Shown: positions 1 to 6,527 of the stretch, piece after piece | Position numbering within the stretch: position 1 is the stretch's first letter | Layout of the letters: every line of letters starts with the position of its first letter | Virus record (IMG/VR): IMGVR_UViG_2585427789_000025 | DNA: 8,979 nucleotides | Reading direction: 5' to 3' (one strand) | DNA from: a virus | Taxonomy: Duplodnaviria > Heunggongvirae > Uroviricota > Caudoviricetes | Translations under genes and position numbers: made by a program | Notes under the pieces: model-generated | The model's input: the letters and a program-made list of their open reading frames with translations, nothing else | What the model was told of the DNA's origin: nothing | The model's database searches: none

Positions 1-102
1 GCTAAGCAGGCTGAAAATCTGTCCGCTCTGGAGCAGGATATCACCAATCTGGAAAAAGCAGCGGCATTAAGCATTGCCAGAATGATTACATACCCACGTT
101 AA
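1..102 (+). CDS. C-terminal fragment of a hypothetical prophage protein (5' end outside window)
   Basis: Frame 1 is open from the window edge to TAA at 100-102 (...LEQDITNLEKAAALSIARMITYPR*). The next gene starts 22 nt downstream on the same strand. No function assignable. Confidence 0.4.
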   Translation, partial: AKQAENLSALEQDITNLEKAAALSIARMITYPR

Positions 103-124
103 TGGTTAACCAACGAGGCTAATA

Positions 125-532
125 ATGGAATTTAAAGATTTACCAAAAGAAATCCAGATAATTGCTGCAACGACACTCGGTGATAGTCTGGTGAAAATTG
201 ACCCGGCATACACCAAAAAAGAAACCATCGATAATATGGTTCGTAATGTGCGCAATGCTTTTTCTGGGCTATATGGTTCTGATAATCAAAAGCAGGAAAG
301 CGATGTTAATAAACGGGTAATTTCTGTTTGCGTGAATGGCCATGTTCTTTCATCAATCAAAACAGAAACGGCGACAGTCTTCGATTGCCTTTGCATTGTA
401 CAGAGCCTTGTTGATGCCCTGTTTCGTTCAGTGAATTTAGAAAATGATGCAAATCTGCGAGGGCGCACAATAGCACATCCATATGCACATACTTTAGGCT
501 CTGTGGATATCAAAGATCCCACAAATCTTTAA
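125..532 (+). CDS. Hypothetical protein, 135 aa
   Basis: ATG at 125 with GAGG about 8 nt upstream. The translation has non-repetitive, protein-like composition. No motif recognised. Confidence 0.5.
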   Translation: MEFKDLPKEIQIIAATTLGDSLVKIDPAYTKKETIDNMVRNVRNAFSGLYGSDNQKQESDVNKRVISVCVNGHVLSSIKTETATVFDCLCIVQSLVDALFRSVNLENDANLRGRTIAHPYAHTLGSVDIKDPTNL

Positions 533-743
533 TGAAATAGTTAACGCGAATTGTACTTGCTCTTTCAGTTGCTTTCAGAATACGCGTTGAAACTGCTGGC
601 GGTAATTTGGTATTCCATTTATTAAAATCATGCCCGGAAAAGTACTCTTCGAAAATACTTTTAACTGCAGACTCGCCTATTGAAATGCTGCTTACCATGC
701 GATTTTGATAAAGGCATTTAGCAATAAGAGTTGATTTTAACAT
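510..743 (-). CDS. Hypothetical small protein, 77 aa, convergent with and overlapping the 3' end of the 125-532 gene by 23 bp
   Basis: Minus-strand ATG at 743 is preceded by a consensus AGGAGG Shine-Dalgarno (reverse complement of 749-754, spacing 5 nt). No competing + strand ORF across 533-743. No motif recognised. Confidence 0.55.
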   Translation of the reverse strand: MLKSTLIAKCLYQNRMVSSISIGESAVKSIFEEYFSGHDFNKWNTKLPPAVSTRILKATERASTIRVNYFIKDLWDL

Positions 744-1052
744 TCACCCTCCTGAGGGTTGGTAATTAAGGAGTTCTCCACGGGTGAACATCCGGCACTG
801 ACAGTTTACTGAAAGGATATTTCTCTGAAAAGTCAGAGCATAACGCGAAAGCGCACGGCGAGGTTGCTGGTTCATAGATAGCCTGTCGTTAAATTTTCGT
901 CGACCGTGCGCTTCCGGTTGTGGCACTCCGCGAAATGGCGCGGCGGTAAGTATGGCGGGGTTATTCCTTCCCCGTTGAGGACACCGGGTTGTCAGGTTGA
1001 CCATACGCCTGAGTGACAACTCCGCTACAACAACCCATGTTGATTACCTTTT

Positions 1053-1096
1053 GGCGGGTATTCGTTTTGTTTTTCCCGTGATACCCGCCCCTTTTA
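1053..1096 (+). terminator. Terminator-like hairpin (9-bp stem GGCGGGTAT/ATACCCGCC, 19-nt loop) followed by CCTTTT
   Basis: Stem arms at 1053-1061 and 1081-1089 are perfectly complementary, with T-run 1092-1095 on the + strand. The loop is long for an intrinsic terminator, so a protein-binding palindrome or a leaky tL-type terminator are alternatives. Confidence 0.35.
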
Positions 1097-1100
1097 AAGT

Positions 1101-1254
1101 GAATTTTGTGATGCGGTGAATGCGGCTCAGCGCACGCGGAACAGTTAAAACAAGCGGTCTTTTACTTGCGTAACAGACATCAACTAACAATCCGGCGTTA
1201 ATGGTTTACTGGTTAACGTCACCTGGAGGCACCAGGCGCCGCATCACAAAATTC
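1101..1254. repeat. Perfect 16-bp inverted repeat (GAATTTTGTGATGCGG ... CCGCATCACAAAATTC) enclosing 122 bp, immediately upstream of the operon RBS
   Basis: 1101-1116 is the exact reverse complement of 1239-1254. The interior contains further short stems, such as CGTTAA / TTAACG around 1196-1218. The RBS GAGGA (1261-1265) and ATG 1273 follow directly. Confidence 0.6.
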
Positions 1255-1272
1255 ATTGTTGAGGACGCGATA

Positions 1273-1461
1273 ATGGAAACGTTATTACCAAACGTTAATA
1301 CGTCTGAAGGTTGTTTTGAAATTGGTGTCACTATCAGTAACCCAGTATTTACTGAAGATGCCATTAACAAGAGAAAACAAGAACGGGAGCTATTAAATAA
1401 AATATGCATTGTTTCAATGCTGGCCCGTTTACGCCTGATGCAAAAAGGATGCTGGCAATGA
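1273..1461 (+). CDS. Small hypothetical protein, 62 aa
   Basis: ATG at 1273 with GAGGA at 1261-1265 (spacing 7). The track ORF 1201-1461 is an upstream extension of the same frame with no RBS. The stop overlaps the next start in an ATGA motif (1458-1461). Confidence 0.5.
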   Translation: METLLPNVNTSEGCFEIGVTISNPVFTEDAINKRKQERELLNKICIVSMLARLRLMQKGCWQ

Positions 1462-1661
1462 ATACTACATTTGCACTTGTTCTGACGGTTTTTCTTGTTT
1501 CCGGTGAACCGGTTGACATGGTTACTGGCGTATACGGCTCAATGAAAGAATGCATGGTTGCCGCAGCGGAACAGAAAATTCCCGGTAACTGTTATCCGGT
1601 CGATAAAGTTATTCACATGGATAATAACGAAATCCCGGCAGGACTTAAAACAGCACCGTAA
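1458..1661 (+). CDS. Small protein with N-terminal hydrophobic segment (signal peptide or membrane anchor), 67 aa
   Basis: ATG at 1458 with AAGGA ending 8 nt upstream, coupled by ATGA overlap to the preceding gene. The N-terminus MNTTFALVLTVFLVSG is hydrophobic. The track ORF 1404-1661 starts upstream in the same frame, but only the 1458 ATG has a properly spaced RBS. Confidence 0.5.
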   Translation: MNTTFALVLTVFLVSGEPVDMVTGVYGSMKECMVAAAEQKIPGNCYPVDKVIHMDNNEIPAGLKTAP

Positions 1662-1741
1662 TTAATATCCGGTTTCATTTTTATATGCCAGCAATGGCAG
1701 GGATTTGTTCACCCTTAAATCTGTAATGAGGTTAAAACAAA

Positions 1742-2746
1742 ATGAGTAAAGTCTTTATTTGCGCCGCCATTCCGGACGAACAGGCAATAAAGGAAGAAGG
1801 TGCAGTCGCTGTAGCCACTGCCATTGAAGCCGGCGACGAACGTCGCGCCCGTGCCAAATTTACCTGGCAATTCCTGGAGCAATATCCGGCTGCTCAGGAC
1901 TGCGCTTATAAATTTCTTGTCTGCGAGGATAAACCCGGCATGCCCCGCCCTGCCATCGACTCCTGGGATACCGAATATATGCTGGAAAACCGCTGGGATG
2001 AGGAAGGCGCTTCCTTTGTCCCGGTCGAACCAGAATCCGATCCGATGATCGTCAATTTTGACAAGCTGTCCCTTGAAGTACAGAACGCGGTCCTGGTTAA
2101 GTTCGGTACATGTGAAAACATCACCGTTGATATGGTGATTAGCGCGCAGGAATTGTTGCAGGAAGACATGGCAACATTCGACGGACATATCGTTGAAGCG
2201 TTGATGAAAATGCCAGAAGTTAACGCCATGTATCCGGAGCTTAAGCTGCATGCCATCGGGTGGGTTAAGCATAAATGTATTCCTAGTGCCAAATGGCCCG
2301 AAATTCAGGCAGAGATGCGCATCTGGAAAAAACGTCGCGAAGGTGAACGCAAGGAAACCGGAAAATACACGTCTGTTGTTGATCTCGCCCGCGCCAGAGC
2401 CAATCAACAGTACACTGAAAATTCAACAGGAAAAATCAGCCCGGTCATTGCTGCCATTCATCGCGAATACAAGCAGACATGGAAAACACTGGATGACGAA
2501 CTGGCCTACGCTCTCTGGCCTGGTGATGTGGATGCCGGAAACATTGACGGCAGCATCCATCGCTGGGCAAAAAATGAAGTTATCGACAACGACCGCGAAG
2601 ACTGGAAGCGTATCTCGGCATCGATGCGCAAACAGCCTGATGCCCTTCGCTACGACCGCCAGACTATTTTTGGCCTTGTCCGTGAGCGTCCGATCGACAT
2701 TCACAAAGATCCTGTGGCACTGAACAAATATATTGCGAATACCTGA
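1742..2746 (+). CDS. Hypothetical acidic protein, 334 aa (prophage accessory protein of unknown function)
   Basis: Long ORF with TGAGG about 12 nt upstream of ATG 1742 and a hydrophilic, Asp/Glu-rich translation. The antisense ORFs 1715-2407 and 1906-2292 are shorter and Phe/His/Cys-rich, so judged spurious. No catalytic motif recognised. Confidence 0.7.
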   Translation: MSKVFICAAIPDEQAIKEEGAVAVATAIEAGDERRARAKFTWQFLEQYPAAQDCAYKFLVCEDKPGMPRPAIDSWDTEYMLENRWDEEGASFVPVEPESDPMIVNFDKLSLEVQNAVLVKFGTCENITVDMVISAQELLQEDMATFDGHIVEALMKMPEVNAMYPELKLHAIGWVKHKCIPSAKWPEIQAEMRIWKKRREGERKETGKYTSVVDLARARANQQYTENSTGKISPVIAAIHREYKQTWKTLDDELAYALWPGDVDAGNIDGSIHRWAKNEVIDNDREDWKRISASMRKQPDALRYDRQTIFGLVRERPIDIHKDPVALNKYIANT

Positions 2747-2766
2747 CTACAAAGGGCGTGTTTGAG

Positions 2767-3111
2767 ATGAAGGAAGAGATCTGGGCGCTGTTGATGTTCT
2801 CTCGTCGTCAGTACCAGAAACTGATGCAGTGGAAACGGGTATCTGATATCGCAAAAACTGAATGCGCGGTGGAAGTTGAACCATCTGTAGAGCGTGAGGG
2901 GCCGTTCTATTTCCTCTTCGCCGATAAGGATGGCGAAAAATACGGTCGCGCAAACAAACTTTCTGGTCTGGATAAGGCGCTGGCTGCTGGGGCTACTGAA
3001 ATCACGAAAGAAGAATATTTTGCCCGCAAAAATGGTACATACTCGGGTTTACCGCAAAATGTTGGTGCCTCTGAAGACCGCACAGCCAGAGCCGGTAAAA
3101 GTTACCGCTGA
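2767..3111 (+). CDS. Hypothetical protein, about 114 aa (start at ATG 2767; alternative GTG 2758)
   Basis: Frame 1 ORF begins 21 nt after the stop of the upstream gene, with AAGGG about 10 nt upstream of ATG 2767. Composition is protein-like. Its 3' end overlaps the 5' region of the downstream exonuclease frame. Confidence 0.55.
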
Positions 3112-4207
3112 CGAAGTAAACAAAATTATGCAGGCAGCCAATATCAGCCAGCCTGACGCCGATAAGTTGCTTGCTGCATCACGTGGTGAATTTGTTGAAG
3201 GGATTAGTGACCCGAATGATCCGAAATGGGTTAAGGGGATCCAGACCCGCGATTCTGTGAACCAGAACCAGCATGAATCGGAACGGAACTACCAGAAAGC
3301 GGAACAAAACAGCCCAAATGCGTTACAAAACGAGCCAGAAACGAAACAGCCTGAACCAGTGGTGCAACAGGAAGTGGAAAAAGTCTGCACCGCCTGCGGT
3401 CAGAGCGGTGGTGGCAACTGCCCTGATTGTGGTGCGGTGATGGGCGACGCAACATACCAGGAAACATTCGATGACGAGTATCAGGTTGAAGTTCAGGAAG
3501 ATGATTCGGAGGAAATGGAAGGCGCTGAACATCCACACAAGGAGAATGCTGGCGGCGCTCAGGATCACGCTAGCGATAGTGAAACTGGCGAGACGGCAGA
3601 TCACCCAATTAAGGTGAACGGTCATCACGAAATCACATCCACCAGCAGGACGTGTGACCATCTAATGATCGACCTTGAAACCATGGGAAAAAATCCTGAT
3701 GCCCCGATCATCTCAATAGGTGCAATATTTTTCGATCCGCAAACCGGAGATATGGGACCGGAATTTAGTAAGACTATCGATCTGGAAACTGCTGGCGGAG
3801 TCATTGATCGGGACACCATTAAATGGTGGCTTAAGCAATCACGCGAAGCGCAATCTGCCATTATGACCGATGAAATCCCGTTAGATGATGCACTGTTACA
3901 ATTGCGGGAATTTATCGACGAAAACTCCGGTGAATTTTTTGTTCAGGTCTGGGGAAATGGAGCCAACTTCGACAACACGATTTTGCGCCGTTCATACGAA
4001 CGGCAGGGGATCCCCTGCCCGTGGCGTTACTACAACGATCGCGATGTACGCACAATCGTTGAGCTGGGGAAAGCCATAGACTTCGATGCCAGAACGGCTA
4101 TTCCATTCGAAGGTGAGCGCCATAATGCACTTGATGACGCTCGTTACCAGGCAAAATACGTTTCAGCTATCTGGCAAAAACTGATCCCGAGTCAGGCTGA
4201 TTTTTAA
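3059..4207 (+). CDS. DEDDh-type 3'-5' exonuclease (DnaQ-like fold) with a disordered acidic linker and a CxxC-x7-CxxC zinc-ribbon; start codon uncertain
   Basis: The C-terminal roughly 190 aa carries the three exonuclease motifs in order: MIDLETMG (Exo I, D-x-E), [13 protein letters not shown] (Exo II) and [10 protein letters not shown] (Exo III, H-x4-D). Upstream lie a Q/E/P-rich low-complexity stretch and [16 protein letters not shown]. The track ORF starts at 2894, but its first 55 codons are Arg/Ser/Trp-rich junk lying over the frame-1 gene. No in-frame ATG (3032, 3059, 3128) has a convincing RBS. Confidence 0.7.
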
Positions 4208-4221
4208 TGTTCAACCCTAAT

Positions 4222-4249
4222 TGCCGCTAACCGTATATAGTTAGCGGCG
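4222..4249. promoter_or_regulatory. Palindrome (9-bp arms GCCGCTAAC / GTTAGCGGC, 8-nt loop CGTATATA) just upstream of the excisionase-like gene; candidate operator or promoter element
   Basis: 4223-4231 is complementary to 4240-4248. The loop holds TATATA (4234-4239), with TTCAAC (4210-4215) 18 bp upstream as a weak -35. There is no downstream T-tract, so an intrinsic terminator is unlikely. Confidence 0.3.
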
Positions 4250-4265
4250 GTTATGAGATATAGCT

Positions 4266-4469
4266 ATGAGCAGCTTATTTTTAACCGAAGATGAATTGCT
4301 AATATTAACGGGCTGCAAATATGCAAGCCACCAGCGAAAATGGTTAATGGAAAACGGGCTTCCGTTCTATACCAATCGTAGTGGCAAACCGATTGTCAGC
4401 CGGGATCTATTTACCTGCAATAAAACTTTACCACCACGCGAGGTAGAGCCGAATTTTGGTGCGATCTGA
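4266..4469 (+). CDS. Excisionase-like small DNA-binding protein (resembles the DUF4224-type proteins found next to phage integrases), 67 aa
   Basis: Sits immediately upstream of the integrase, and its stop overlaps the integrase start (TGATG at 4467-4471). The family call is from memory of the conserved N-terminal pattern, not from a search. Confidence 0.6.
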   Translation: MSSLFLTEDELLILTGCKYASHQRKWLMENGLPFYTNRSGKPIVSRDLFTCNKTLPPREVEPNFGAI

Positions 4470-5494
4470 TGGGAAGACGAAGGAAAAATCCTGAACACGA
4501 AAAATTACCTCCAAATGTATACCCAAATAAATATAGTTATGTATGGAAACCAACATCCAGAGAATCTGTCACACTAACCGCCATCAAGGATGGTTTAGCT
4601 GCTTTATGGAAAAAGTATGAGGAAACTGTAAATAATCGCGATCGTGCAATGACATTCGGTCGCTTGTGGGAAAAATTCCTCGCCAGCGCCTATTACAGTG
4701 ACCTTAGTCCAAGAACACAAAAAGATTATCTGCAACATCAAAAAAAGTTGCTTGCCGTATTCGGTAAGGTACCAGCGGATTCCATAAAACCAGAACACAT
4801 CCGTCGATACATGGACAAAAGAGGGGAGCAGAGTAAAACGCAAGCCAACCATGAAAAAAGCAGTATGTCCCGTGTTTACAGTTGGGGGTATGAGCGAGGG
4901 TACGTGAAGGCTAACCCATGTGCAGGTGTAAGTAAATTCAAGGCCAAAAACCGCGAACGATATGTAACCGACAAAGAATACCAGGCAGTATTAAGCGTTG
5001 CACCTCTTCCTGTTTTTATCGCAATGGAAATTGCCTATCTGTGTGCAGCGAGGGTTTCCGATGTGTTATCGCTGAAATGGGAACAGATTGGAAACGACGG
5101 GATATTCATCCAGCAAGGGAAAACCGGAAAAAAACAGATAAAAGCATGGAGTCCACGATTACAGGCAGCGATCGAAAAAGCAAAACAGTTGCCAAAATCT
5201 GCCTATGTGATCAGCAATCAATACGGCAACCGATATATGTACAAAGGCTTTAACGAAATGTGGGTAGATGCAAGAAATCGTGCTGGAAAAATTTCAGGTA
5301 TTTTAACCGACTTCACCTTTCATGATCTGAAGGCGAAAGGAATTTCAGACTATGAAGGAAGCAGCCGGGATAAGCAACTTTTCTCTGGTCACAAAACCGA
5401 AGGGCAAGTGCTAATCTATGACAGGAAGGTTAAAGTTTCACCAACACTTGATGTCCCGTTACCTGAAAATATTCCAAGAAAATATTCCAAGTAA
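4469..5494 (+). CDS. int: Lambda-family tyrosine integrase, 341 aa
   Basis: N-terminus MGRRRKNPEHEKLPPNVY resembles the lambda Int arm-binding N-terminus (MGRRR...LPPN.Y). Catalytic-domain blocks align by eye to lambda Int: AARVSDVLSLKWEQI (Arg I), GKTGKK (Lys), FHDLKAKGISDYE (His with Lys in the Arg II position), SGHK (His) and LIYDR (Tyr). The gene ends 52 bp from the 3' end of serU. Confidence 0.9.
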   Translation: MGRRRKNPEHEKLPPNVYPNKYSYVWKPTSRESVTLTAIKDGLAALWKKYEETVNNRDRAMTFGRLWEKFLASAYYSDLSPRTQKDYLQHQKKLLAVFGKVPADSIKPEHIRRYMDKRGEQSKTQANHEKSSMSRVYSWGYERGYVKANPCAGVSKFKAKNRERYVTDKEYQAVLSVAPLPVFIAMEIAYLCAARVSDVLSLKWEQIGNDGIFIQQGKTGKKQIKAWSPRLQAAIEKAKQLPKSAYVISNQYGNRYMYKGFNEMWVDARNRAGKISGILTDFTFHDLKAKGISDYEGSSRDKQLFSGHKTEGQVLIYDRKVKVSPTLDVPLPENIPRKYSK

Positions 5495-5546: not shown

Positions 5547-5636
5547 TGGCGGAGAGAGGGGGATTTGAACCCCCGGTGGAGTTGCCCCCACTCCGGTTTT
5601 CGAGACCGGTCCGTTCAGCCGCTCCGGCATCTCTCC
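5547..5636 (-). tRNA. serU: tRNA-Ser (anticodon CGA), 90 nt with long variable arm
   Basis: Reverse complement of 5547-5636 reads GGAGAGATGCCGGAGCGGCTGAACGGACCGGTCTCGAAAACCGG...GGGGGTTCAAATCCCCCTCTCTCCGCCA. It has an acceptor stem, anticodon loop CTCGAAA (anticodon CGA), a class II variable arm and a 3' CCA. Confidence 0.9.
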
Positions 5637-5729
5637 GTTCAGATGGTTGCCATGATGCCAGGAAATTTGGCATTTTAACAGTCCCTGTCCGTGCAATTTT
5701 GTTCAAGTGACGAGTTTGCGAGCAAAACG

Positions 5730-6527
5730 ATGATTAAGTGGCCCTGGAAAGTACAAGAATCAGCACATCAAACTGCCCTTCCCTGGCAGGAAGCACTATC
5801 GATCCCCCTTTTAACGGGTCTGACGGAACAGGAACAAAGCAAATTAGTCACTCTTGCCGAACGTTTTTTACAGCAAAAGCGGCTTGTTCCTTTACAGGGC
5901 TTTGAACTGGATTCATTAAGAAGCTGCCGGATAGCACTTCTATTTTGCCTACCCGTTCTGGAGTTAGGACTGGAATGGCTGGATGGTTTTCATGAAGTCT
6001 TAATTTATCCTGCGCCATTTGTGGTCGATGATGAATGGGAAGACGATATCGGTCTGGTGCATAACCAACGTATTGTTCAGTCAGGTCAGAGCTGGCAGCA
6101 AGGGCCTATCGTTTTGAACTGGTTGGATATACAAGATTCTTTTGATGCTTCTGGTTTTAACCTGATTATTCATGAAGTCGCTCATAAGCTGGACACCCGT
6201 AACGGCGATCGCGCCAGCGGAGTTCCCTTTATTCCGTTGCGTGAGGTTGCTGGCTGGGAACACGATCTTCATGCTGCAATGAACAACATTCAGGAAGAAA
6301 TCGAATTGGTTGGCGAGAATGCGGCGAGCATTGATGCTTATGCTGCCAGTGATCCTGCTGAATGTTTTGCCGTACTTTCTGAATATTTCTTTAGCGCCCC
6401 AGAACTTTTTGCTCCTCGTTTCCCTTCATTGTGGCAACGTTTCTGCCAATTTTATCAACAAGATCCTTTGCTGAGACTGCATCACGCTAATGATACAGAC
6501 TCGTTTTCGGCGACGAATGTTCATTAA
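5730..6527 (+). CDS. mtfA: Mlc titration factor A (MtfA/YeeI), 265 aa
   Basis: The translation from ATG 5730 ([29 protein letters not shown]...) matches my recollection of E. coli MtfA, including the HEVAH zinc-peptidase motif. The track ORF from 5691 is an upstream extension of the same frame. Confidence 0.88.

Follow-up and report, generated by a model that had tools for sequence, protein, structure and literature searches.

The zinc-ribbon DEDDh exonuclease frame beside xis and int in a lambdoid prophage is the C-terminal part of a known ydfE-type gene, very probably split by an assembly artefact

Full-length ydfE-type exonucleases are encoded by E. coli lambdoid prophages of the Qin/Tritos/mEp460-like kind. 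WP_209418369.1, WP_000048302.1 and TRITO_27 are examples, and the proteins are represented by PHROG 2082. In the Rac prophage the same operon slot, beside xis-int, is taken by RecE (exonuclease VIII), which has its own C-terminal PD-(D/E)XK 5'-3' nuclease (DUF3799/PDDEXK, PF12684) and is followed by recT. Further relatives share the nuclease domain. They include T4 DexA (exonuclease A; 8KEL/8KEN), its stand-alone E. coli homologue EcD, the Mycobacterium tuberculosis Rv2179c family (PF16473), of which Rv2179c itself is a stand-alone exoribonuclease, and the Rv2179c-like exonucleases of 180-190 aa in Enterobacteriaceae prophages, which are without N-terminal domains, zinc ribbon and linker. The nearest characterised relatives diverge in function: DexA acts in DNA scavenging and intron homing, EcD in defence against T4, and Rv2179c on RNA.

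The window analysed here, the whole stretch of 8,979 nucleotides from a tailed-phage record (IMGVR_UViG_2585427789_000025), contains at 3059..4207 (+) a reading frame of 382 aa, ORF3, with an ATG at 3059 and a stop codon at 4205-4207. The GenBank CDS for it is 3062-4207, and a longer ORF that starts with GTG (2894..4207) encloses it. The sequence-only reading had taken ORF3 as a discrete gene for a zinc-ribbon exonuclease. This has to be given up, because PHROG 2082 and the intact homologues span 1742..4207 (+) as one gene, a full-length ydfE-type prophage exonuclease gene. The PHROG profile of 823 positions is collinear through three consecutive window ORFs in different frames. ORF1 (1742..2746, +; 334 aa), with the YdfE_N and YdfE_C domains (PF27430, PF27432), matches positions 1-332 (E=9e-252). 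ORF2 (2758..3111, +; 117 aa; KEO15984.1, 'putative exonuclease'), the middle piece, lies in another frame, has a later-starting GenBank CDS (2767-3111) and matches positions 366-448 (E=1.2e-46). ORF3, the C-terminal piece, matches positions 448-823 (E=9.8e-218). The intact homologues that were aligned are single CDSs (L001:6043-8514, L002:6043-8514 and L013:1339-3810), and the gene measures 2472 nt (823 codons) in intact copies compared to 2466 nt in the window. An intact 2472-nt CDS in the same synteny was found in a complete chromosome at the serU site, in another chromosome and in phage Tritos. Nucleotide identity between the window gene and its intact homologues is about 96% across the whole 2.5 kb. 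ORF3 is no separate gene; it encodes 46% of an 823-aa protein, at the C-terminal end.

The gene is already known: thousands of E. coli genomes have an annotated gene with about 96% identity to it. It is repeated within genomes, at a median of 2 and a maximum of 10 places each, and database copies are mostly 'partial' and located at contig ends. The ydfE pseudogene of K-12, which is 92% identical over aa 1-257, is an N-terminal remnant of the 823-codon gene. In the intact protein the order of parts is YdfE_N and YdfE_C (aa 1-332), a variable linker, a RecE-type Cys4 module, an acidic disordered tether and the DEDDh exonuclease. The AlphaFold2 model of the N-terminal 334 aa had a mean pLDDT of 57.6, and a Foldseek search with it against the PDB returned no match at E below 0.3.

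The proposal that ORF3 carries a DEDDh nuclease holds well. The domain at 3650..4198 (+) is assigned by profile, alignment, AlphaFold2 model and Foldseek to the Rv2179c-like/DexA-like type, and a 3'-5' exonuclease activity of the DEDDh (DnaQ-like) superfamily is predicted for it. Residues 201-372 match Pfam PF16473 nearly end to end, at positions 2-177 of 177 (228.9 bits, the cutoff being 27; E=4.3e-68), and RNase_T PF00929 also matches ORF3 (E=8.7e-5). The ExoI motif is D205-x-E207 in MIDLET (codons 3671-3673 and 3677-3679, +), ExoII is D305 in WGNGANFDN (3971-3973), and ExoIII is H355-NALD-D360, an H-x4-D motif (4121-4123 and 4136-4138). A 42-sequence alignment shows no variation at D205, D305, H355 and D360, and E207 is kept in at least 90% of the sequences. 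These five residues align with D7, E9, D119, D191 and H186 of T4 DexA, where H186 pairs with H355 and D191 with D360, so that the Asp, Glu and His positions on which the earlier assignment depended are all retained. The catalytic residues of EcD-type nucleases are likewise present. The predicted structure agrees with this. AlphaFold2 models the domain as an RNase H-like alpha/beta fold with pLDDT 85-95, and the best Foldseek matches in the PDB, headed by DexA (8kel/8ken), also include RNase T, Orn/REXO2 and Cap18, all with a probability of 1.00 and target-normalised TM scores of 0.6-0.76. By analogy with the family, D205, E207, D305 and D360 would hold two Mg2+ ions and H355 would activate water, and nucleotides would come off singly from a free 3' end.

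DexA is the best PDB match in both sequence and structure and shares the DEDDh fold and catalytic residues. However, identity is only 26%, the extra loops of DexA are missing in the ORF3 domain, and the domain is part of an 823-aa protein, not a stand-alone nuclease of about 200 aa like DexA and EcD. Identity with EcD itself was rejected: the EcD primers encode a start reading MIDTET and an end reading TIPETYD, and both are missing in the ORF3 protein. The Rv2179c family is matched over its whole profile, but the exonuclease domain of the ydfE-type protein is fused to a RecE-like scaffold. The stand-alone prophage exonucleases (P0056, P0081, P0115) are 58-88% identical to the ORF3 domain and keep all catalytic residues.

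Ahead of the nuclease, the CxxC-x7-CxxC motif and the acidic linker that had been read from the translation are indeed found. The putative zinc ribbon (3386..3430, +) consists of C110 (3386-3388), C113 (3395-3397), C121 (3419-3421) and C124 (3428-3430). In the AlphaFold2 model it forms short beta elements with pLDDT about 64. The histidine-containing linker, aa 129-197 (3443..3649, +), has 29% D+E and 4% K+R and is predicted to be disordered (pLDDT about 26). Neither element is a novel appendage, as both belong to a module common to RecE. This RecE-type central module covers ORF3 aa 33-185, equal to aa 474-626 of the intact protein (3155..3613, +), and is made up of two short helices and a spacer rich in Q, N and E, together with the zinc ribbon and the first part of the acidic linker. 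It is 71% identical to Rac-SA53 RecE aa 471-616 over 153 aa and 83% identical to recE at the nucleotide level, and it matches positions 446-600 of the NCBIfam exoVIII profile. Weaker homology to RecE extends back to aa 238 of the intact protein. The zinc-ribbon cysteines are kept in E. coli homologues and in RecE, and in the alignment shown they are absent from the distant homologues P0089 and P0099. Because the module with the zinc ribbon and linker is 71% identical to that of Rac RecE, the protein is best described as a RecE-like scaffold in which a predicted 3'-5' DEDDh nuclease replaces the 5'-3' nuclease of RecE. It differs from RecE in its PF16473 C-terminus, in a different N-terminus without Exonuc_VIII PF06630, and in having no annealase neighbour. 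With the RecE equivalog profile NF007259, ORF3 scored 236 bits and an intact homologue 285 bits, compared to a cutoff of 1269.

The genes around ORF3 are those of the intact loci. ORF3 lies beside xis and int, as had been noted before, immediately upstream of xis (DUF4224; 4266-4469, +), which is followed by the tyrosine integrase gene int (4469-5494, +). The order dicB, DUF1482/ydfD, exonuclease, xis, int is the same in the window and in intact loci, and the serU site is the same in some genomes. When intact, the gene closes the dicB-ydfD early-left operon as a conserved member, at the place where Rac has recE-recT. No SSAP (annealase) gene is present between dicB and int, either in the window or in the intact loci. 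The suggestion that the nuclease is accessory cargo fits poorly with this conserved position and with a gene of which 3489 of the 5426 complete E. coli genomes contain at least 80%. The position is that of recE, but the predicted polarity is 3'-5' and the annealase partner is missing; a 3'-5' nuclease without annealase is ill-fitting to the classical Red/RecET recombination scheme. The DicF sRNA upstream of dicB was not detected by Rfam, also when thresholds were relaxed.

The window copy differs from the intact ydfE-type alleles in four frame-breaking deletions (2734..3076, +), which we attribute to assembly consensus error. Alignment to the intact alleles places them near 2734-2736 (-1), at 2765 (-1), at 2838 (-2) and near 3074-3076 (-2). 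Together they remove 6 nt and move the reading frame from 2 to 1, 0, 1 and back to 2. They create a stop codon at 2744-2746 that truncates ORF1, and the frame is interrupted. The base choices in and around this segment are strongly biased. Within 2141-3404, 107 sites distinguish two intact allele types, and at 102/107 the window carries whichever base comes later in the alphabet, distributed as 7/8, 78/82 and 17/17 over three sub-stretches. In the control regions the later base occurs at 20/46 and 5/10 sites (25/56 in total). A strict site set gave 67/70 (P=4.8e-17). All A/G sites carry G (21/21) and all C/T sites carry T (21/21) within 2141-3404. Bases private to the window are found only at the four lesion sites, as six gap columns and an adjacent G at 2735. 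The window is identical to a sister contig (L004) over nt 1-3404 and divergent afterwards, and the biased stretch ends at 3404, the exact point where contigs JOSP01000052 and JOSP01000066 of the same assembly diverge. From the base bias and its end at the contig divergence we infer that in 2141..3404 two paralogous alleles were collapsed into a consensus by tie-breaking, and the frameshifts and the start at 3059 would thus be artefactual.

The steps can be pictured as follows. A short-read assembler would have collapsed two paralogous prophage copies into one over window nt 2141-3404. Ties at variant sites would have been resolved in the order T>G>C>A, and staggered indel columns would have been dropped, which would produce the four frameshifts. 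Judged from the base-choice pattern, both the division into three ORFs and the ATG at 3059 stem from the assembly consensus. Overall, 3059-4207 is very probably the 3' 46% of a full-length ydfE gene at 1742-4207 that was split by this artefact.

Two other explanations for the split gene have to be weighed against a collapsed consensus. The four deletions recur in two other assemblies, AQBA01 and LGND01, and the flanks of the lesion-bearing contigs differ by up to 16% among the three assemblies. On its face this recurrence suggests a real inherited allele, that is, a decayed pseudogene of the 823-codon exonuclease whose lesion segment spread among prophages by recombination. Decay of prophage genes is frequent, and ydfE and intQ are pseudogenes in K-12. 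A deterministic tie-break covers the recurrence only if those strains share both allele types and a similar pipeline was used. A random-majority consensus of two alleles, which was also considered, would not give the same mosaic in three assemblies; a deterministic tie-break would. Real frameshifts nevertheless appear very unlikely, since a preference for the alphabetically later base is a pattern without biological cause, substitutions private to the segment are lacking outside the four lesion sites, and the bias stops exactly where two contigs part. In addition, a search of 5426 complete E. coli genomes found no match to the lesion segments above 90-95% identity, and over the full length the matches went no higher than 88-90%. 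Programmed frameshifting was rejected on similar grounds, namely the base bias, the absence of window-specific substitutions away from the lesions and the failure of any complete genome to match closely. It is hardly credible that a separate accessory gene at 3059-4207 encodes a zinc-ribbon exonuclease of 382 aa and is perhaps still expressed from an internal start. The GenBank CDS at 3062-4207 agrees with this idea, and the exonuclease-only homologues of 180-190 aa, common in Enterobacteriaceae, indicate that the domain can work alone. However, ORF3 is collinear with the 823-aa gene, and its start at 3059 is owed to the artefactual frameshift. A promoter and terminator scan found nothing promoter-like before ORF3, with overall counts not above shuffle expectation, and by reading there is no Shine-Dalgarno match before 3059, 3128 or 3665. 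The exact protein, searched with four alternative starts, does not occur in a 15-billion-protein collection. Opposite-strand and overlapping ORFs within 3059-4207 gave no Pfam match.

With a split full-length ydfE as the preferred reading, the odd three-ORF shape is an assembly artefact, and the finding is an ordinary one with no candidate novelty. Where paralogues vary, the alphabetical T>G>C>A tie-break leaves a signature by which a collapsed-repeat consensus in a draft genome can be tested for simply and with high sensitivity. It may account for other 'frameshifted' prophage genes in the same and sister assemblies.

The role of the intact protein has to be considered separately from the state of the window copy. 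No functional study of ydfE or of the role of this exonuclease was found in the literature, and the literature on Rv2179c contained nothing relevant to phages. Tentatively, as the product of the last gene of the dicB-ydfD operon, the intact protein may process DNA ends in lytic growth. The sequence-only reading had mentioned anti-defence and exclusion as possible roles by analogy. PADLOC (PADLOC-DB 2.0) gave no system-specific match and hit only a generic CRISPR-associated DEDDh model (E=5e-6), while nothing was found for the neighbouring genes; an assignment to a defence system was rejected on this ground.

One option, though an unlikely one, is an 'HREX'-like nuclease that would serve the prophage in exclusion or defence and degrade incoming phage DNA with modified cytosines. 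Exclusion of some phages is known for the neighbouring gene dicB. Among solved structures DexA is the closest, and T4 dexA is tagged PHROG 255, which ORF3 also matches. EcD is reported to cut 5hmC-DNA and to protect against T4 (PMC12153337). However, EcD is a different protein, this single paper concerns another architecture, and the PADLOC match is weak and generic. In DexA, W152 and D169 are tied to the recognition of 5hmC. The column of DexA W152 has a Tyr in ORF3 (PWRYYND), and the Trp is kept in many stand-alone homologues. The tetramer-forming D90 of DexA, which is lost in EcD, aligns to an Asp in PLDDAL, or to Ala if the alignment is shifted by one column. DexA S87 aligns to Pro, and D169 to a Phe with an Asp on either side, in a poorly aligned stretch. 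An alternative is that the intact protein acts like Rv2179c as an exoribonuclease that trims RNA 3' ends, for example of operon transcripts or of sRNAs such as DicF. The best-matching Pfam family is named after the Rv2179c 3'-5' exoribonuclease, RNase T and oligoribonuclease are close in structure, and NCBI labels many homologues '3'-5' exoribonuclease'. Yet homology is the sole basis of these names, DexA as the nearest relative with a solved structure is a DNase, and the scaffold is common to the DNA exonuclease RecE, which makes an RNA substrate distinctly improbable. A further, unlikely idea is that in the intact protein a RecE-derived scaffold brings a DexA-like 3'-5' nuclease to DNA ends, either to counter host defence or to exclude superinfecting phages, perhaps ones whose DNA is modified. 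If true, the dicB-ydfD-ydfE operon would be a multi-layer exclusion module. In any of these roles, full-length YdfE is an abundant modular nuclease with the central scaffold of RecE, a predicted opposite polarity and no annealase, and its part in lambdoid phage biology is easily testable.

Apart from short repeats at chance level, the region contains one imperfect hairpin past the ORF3 stop codon and before xis (4218..4253, +), with 14-nt arms and an 8-nt loop and no T-run after it. Downstream of int, a tRNA-Ser(CGA) gene (5547-5636, -) abuts the prophage end.

The window spans nucleotides 1-8979 of contig JOSP01000052.1 (E. coli 2-222-05_S4_C3, assembly GCA_000713785.1) and contains the left end of a lambdoid prophage with its chromosomal junction. 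Behind dicB (1273-1461) and a DUF1482/ydfD-like gene (1458-1661) lie three successive 'exonuclease' ORFs, ORF1 (1742-2746), ORF2 (2758-3111) and ORF3 (3059-4207), followed by xis (DUF4224, 4266-4469) and a tyrosine integrase gene (4469-5494). The latter ends 52 nt from tRNA-Ser(CGA) (serU, 5547-5636, minus strand), which is the probable attachment site. Related prophages with the exonuclease gene intact occupy the same serU site in complete genomes (locus L013), and the same gene adjoins at least two other integrase types (loci L001 and L002/L004). The chromosomal side carries mtfA (5730-6527 as called in GenBank; the longest ORF starts at 5691), tRNA-Asn (6628-6703), a yeeJ remnant (7144-8463) and, from about 8464, an IS66-family element with a TnpA ORF at 8542-8979.

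The sequence-only reading had described ORF3 (found at 3059..4207) as a zinc ribbon followed by an acidic linker and a DEDDh 3'-5' exonuclease. All three elements are real and far beyond chance. The CxxC-x7-CxxC motif is formed by C110, C113, C121 and C124, and residues 129-197 contain 29% Asp plus Glu and only 4% Lys plus Arg. The C-terminal domain matches the Pfam Rv2179c-like family (PF16473) end to end (228.9 bits, E=4.3e-68), with a weak match to RNase_T. Across 42 aligned homologues there is no variation at D205, D305, H355 and D360, and E207 is kept in at least 90%; together these five residues align to D7, E9, D119, H186 and D191, the catalytic residues of T4 DexA (PMC12153337). An AlphaFold2 model based on the same alignment is confident for residues 198-380 (pLDDT 85-95), moderate for two helices (residues 17-41) and the zinc-ribbon segment (pLDDT about 64), and disordered elsewhere. 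Foldseek against the PDB placed DexA (8kel/8ken) first, followed by RNase T, oligoribonuclease/REXO2 and Cap18, all with probability 1.00; DexA was the only match in a PDB sequence search. The DEDDh active site of ORF3 is complete, and the DnaQ-like fold around it is predicted with confidence. RecE and the E. coli homologues keep the zinc-ribbon motif, which is absent from the displayed distant homologues P0089 and P0099; the exonuclease domain alone occurs across Enterobacteriaceae as proteins of 180-190 aa with 58-88% identity.

That ORF3 is a gene of its own, as first read, is contradicted by comparison with other genomes. PHROG 2082, an 'exonuclease' family of 823 positions, is collinear with all three ORFs, ORF1 covering positions 1-332, ORF2 366-448 and ORF3 448-823. 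The same DNA is a single 2472-nt, 823-aa CDS in complete genomes and isolated phages, for example in E. coli AST262, in phage Tritos and in a chromosome with a prophage of identical synteny at the same serU site. Of 5426 complete E. coli genomes, 4800 matched a 2.56-kb gene query and 3489 covered at least 80% of it, at a median of 2 and a maximum of 10 places per genome. In K-12 the gene is the pseudogene ydfE (b1577) of prophage Qin, truncated by IS2; its first 257 residues are 92% identical to ORF1, and the order dicF-dicB-ydfD-ydfE is common to both. The newer Pfam families YdfE_N and YdfE_C also match ORF1. Compared with intact copies, the window is missing 1 nt near 2734, 1 at 2765, 2 at 2838 and 2 near 3074, so that the reading frame runs 2, 1, 0, 1, 2 and meets a stop at 2744-2746. 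No promoter-like site was seen ahead of ORF3 in a promoter scan, and opposite-strand and nested ORFs within the exonuclease region had no family matches. The only meaningful repeat there is an imperfect hairpin that separates the stop codon of the exonuclease from xis (4218-4253; 14-nt arms, 86% complementary, 8-nt loop); it is not followed by a T-run and could serve in processing or attenuation.

The four deletions could mark a pseudogene or arise in assembly. The assembly has another contig, JOSP01000066.1, that is byte-identical to the window over nucleotides 1-3404; it leads on to a different xis/int and differs from the window at about 2.5% of sites beyond 3404. No complete genome matched the 146-bp and 96-bp lesion-spanning segments above 90-95% identity; full-length matches reached at most 88-90%, against 96-100% for the flanks. 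The intact alleles considered here are of two types, A (L001, L010) and B (L002, L009), 18.5% apart. At 75 sites that distinguish them the window alternates between the two states in 35 runs, and it has no private bases outside the four lesion sites. The decisive test was which base the window carries where two intact alleles differ. It is the alphabetically later one at 7 of 8 sites in 2141-2639, 78 of 82 in 2640-3130 and all 17 in 3131-3404, as compared to 20 of 46 and 5 of 10 in the control segments 1742-2140 and 3641-4207. All 21 A/G sites read G and all 21 C/T sites read T; in the strict informative set the later base was found at 67 of 70 sites (binomial P=4.8e-17).

No mutational or recombinational process chooses bases by alphabetical order, and this bias makes a real pseudogene lineage very unlikely. 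The pattern is what a consensus caller yields when it resolves 1:1 ties with the preference T>G>C>A, and the biased stretch stops exactly at 3404, where the assembler started to separate both copies. The deletions lie where alleles A and B align with staggered gaps, for example TTTGAAGATG in type A, TTTGAGAATG in type B and TTTGAGATG in the window; dropping each half-supported insertion column would produce deletions of this kind. The same mosaic with the same four deletions recurs in contigs of two more draft assemblies, AQBA01 and LGND01, with few differences from the window, mostly at sites variable among intact alleles. A deterministic tie rule would account for this recurrence in JOSP01, AQBA01 and LGND01, but neither a random-majority consensus nor a pseudogene lineage explains it. 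The base patterns point to an artefact common to the three assemblies, in which the later base was written at paralogue differences and staggered indel columns were dropped; it appears in window 2141-3404, in JOSP01000066.1 and in the further contigs L006, L007 and L008. It is a strong inference that a chimeric consensus underlies the split into three ORFs, the start codon ATG at 3059 and, as written, the initial ~115 residues of ORF3; two intact copies of 823 codons each are most probably present in the strain. False frameshifts of the same kind may also affect further multi-copy prophage genes of these assemblies.

The intact protein starts with YdfE_N and YdfE_C (residues 1-332), a region modelled with only partial confidence and with no significant match in the fold search. 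A hypervariable linker and a conserved segment lead to a RecE-type module (residues 474-626, window 3155-3613), in which the zinc ribbon and the first part of the acidic linker lie, and the DEDDh domain is C-terminal. The module is 71% identical to residues 471-616 of RecE from Rac-SA53, and residues 238-626 of the intact protein align with the exonuclease VIII profile of NCBIfam, at a score (285) far under its cutoff of 1269. The gene also occupies the operon slot of recE, directly before xis-int. However, RecE has an N-terminal Exonuc_VIII domain, a C-terminal PD-(D/E)XK nuclease and recT downstream, whereas the ydfE-type protein has a different head and a nuclease of opposite polarity that begins about 15 residues past the shared module. 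No annealase gene lies between the immunity region and int in the intact loci of AST262, phage Tritos and the same-serU-site chromosome. The ydfE-type protein is not RecE, since it lacks the nuclease domain that defines RecE as well as recT as a partner and scores below the threshold; judged from sequence, the protein is a RecE-like scaffold with a swapped-in nuclease of opposite polarity.

By analogy with its family, the domain would hydrolyze nucleic acid from a free 3' end by a two-metal-ion mechanism with H355 as general base. Rv2179c, the namesake of the Pfam family, is an exoribonuclease. The main functional rival is that the intact protein acts as an exclusion nuclease like EcD (HREX), a stand-alone E. 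coli homologue of DexA that reportedly digests 5hmC-DNA and protects against T4 (PMC12153337). EcD is, however, a different protein, and the positions proposed for 5hmC recognition and oligomerisation have no clear match in the ydfE-type exonuclease. The PADLOC search that the sequence-only reading had proposed was run and gave no specific defence-system match, and we regard an exclusion role as unlikely. Genes for DnaQ-type nucleases close to int in early-left operons, as well as 'RecE-2' proteins, were also described independently in a recent survey of lambdoid phages, which left their roles unassigned (PMC12315714).

The gene itself is a routine, already known member of a catalogued family, with PHROG 2082 spanning it and Pfam families at both ends. 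NCBI uses the name 'exonuclease' or '3'-5' exonuclease' for its homologues, and copies in many genomes are about 96% identical to that of the window. No study characterising ydfE or its full-length form was found in the literature searched. Only two things deserve to be carried forward, namely testing for collapsed repeats by the alphabetical tie-break signature, and the uncharacterised biology of full-length YdfE.

Because several diverged copies occur per genome, the gene routinely breaks short-read assemblies. Most of the best-scoring database proteins among the matches listed are labelled 'partial'. The P0304816.3 contigs L007 and L008 have extra single-base deletions at the equivalents of window 3167, 3313 and 3383, and L008 alone at 3653; three of these four lie within the segment also common to recE, which fits a deeper repeat collapse there. 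In yeeJ (7017-8463), 4377 bp of the intact locus L013 are gone at 7106/7107, and homology ends at 8463, where the IS66-family element starts. The missing portion consists of Big_1 repeats, so that real deletion and repeat collapse look alike. The K-12 dicF-dicB region is alignable to window 1040-1250 at about 90% identity. DicF had no Rfam match upstream of dicB even with relaxed thresholds, the sole match in this region being to the sRNA family STnc100 (1102-1250) at 29.9 bits, below the gathering score of 47. About 650 bp at 123-778 have no counterpart in L013, a complete genome that is otherwise syntenic; within them lie an ORF of 135 aa (125-532, PHROG 1363, function unknown) and an overlapping antisense ORF annotated in GenBank (510-743), and they look like a moron-like insertion in the ydfC/dicB interval.
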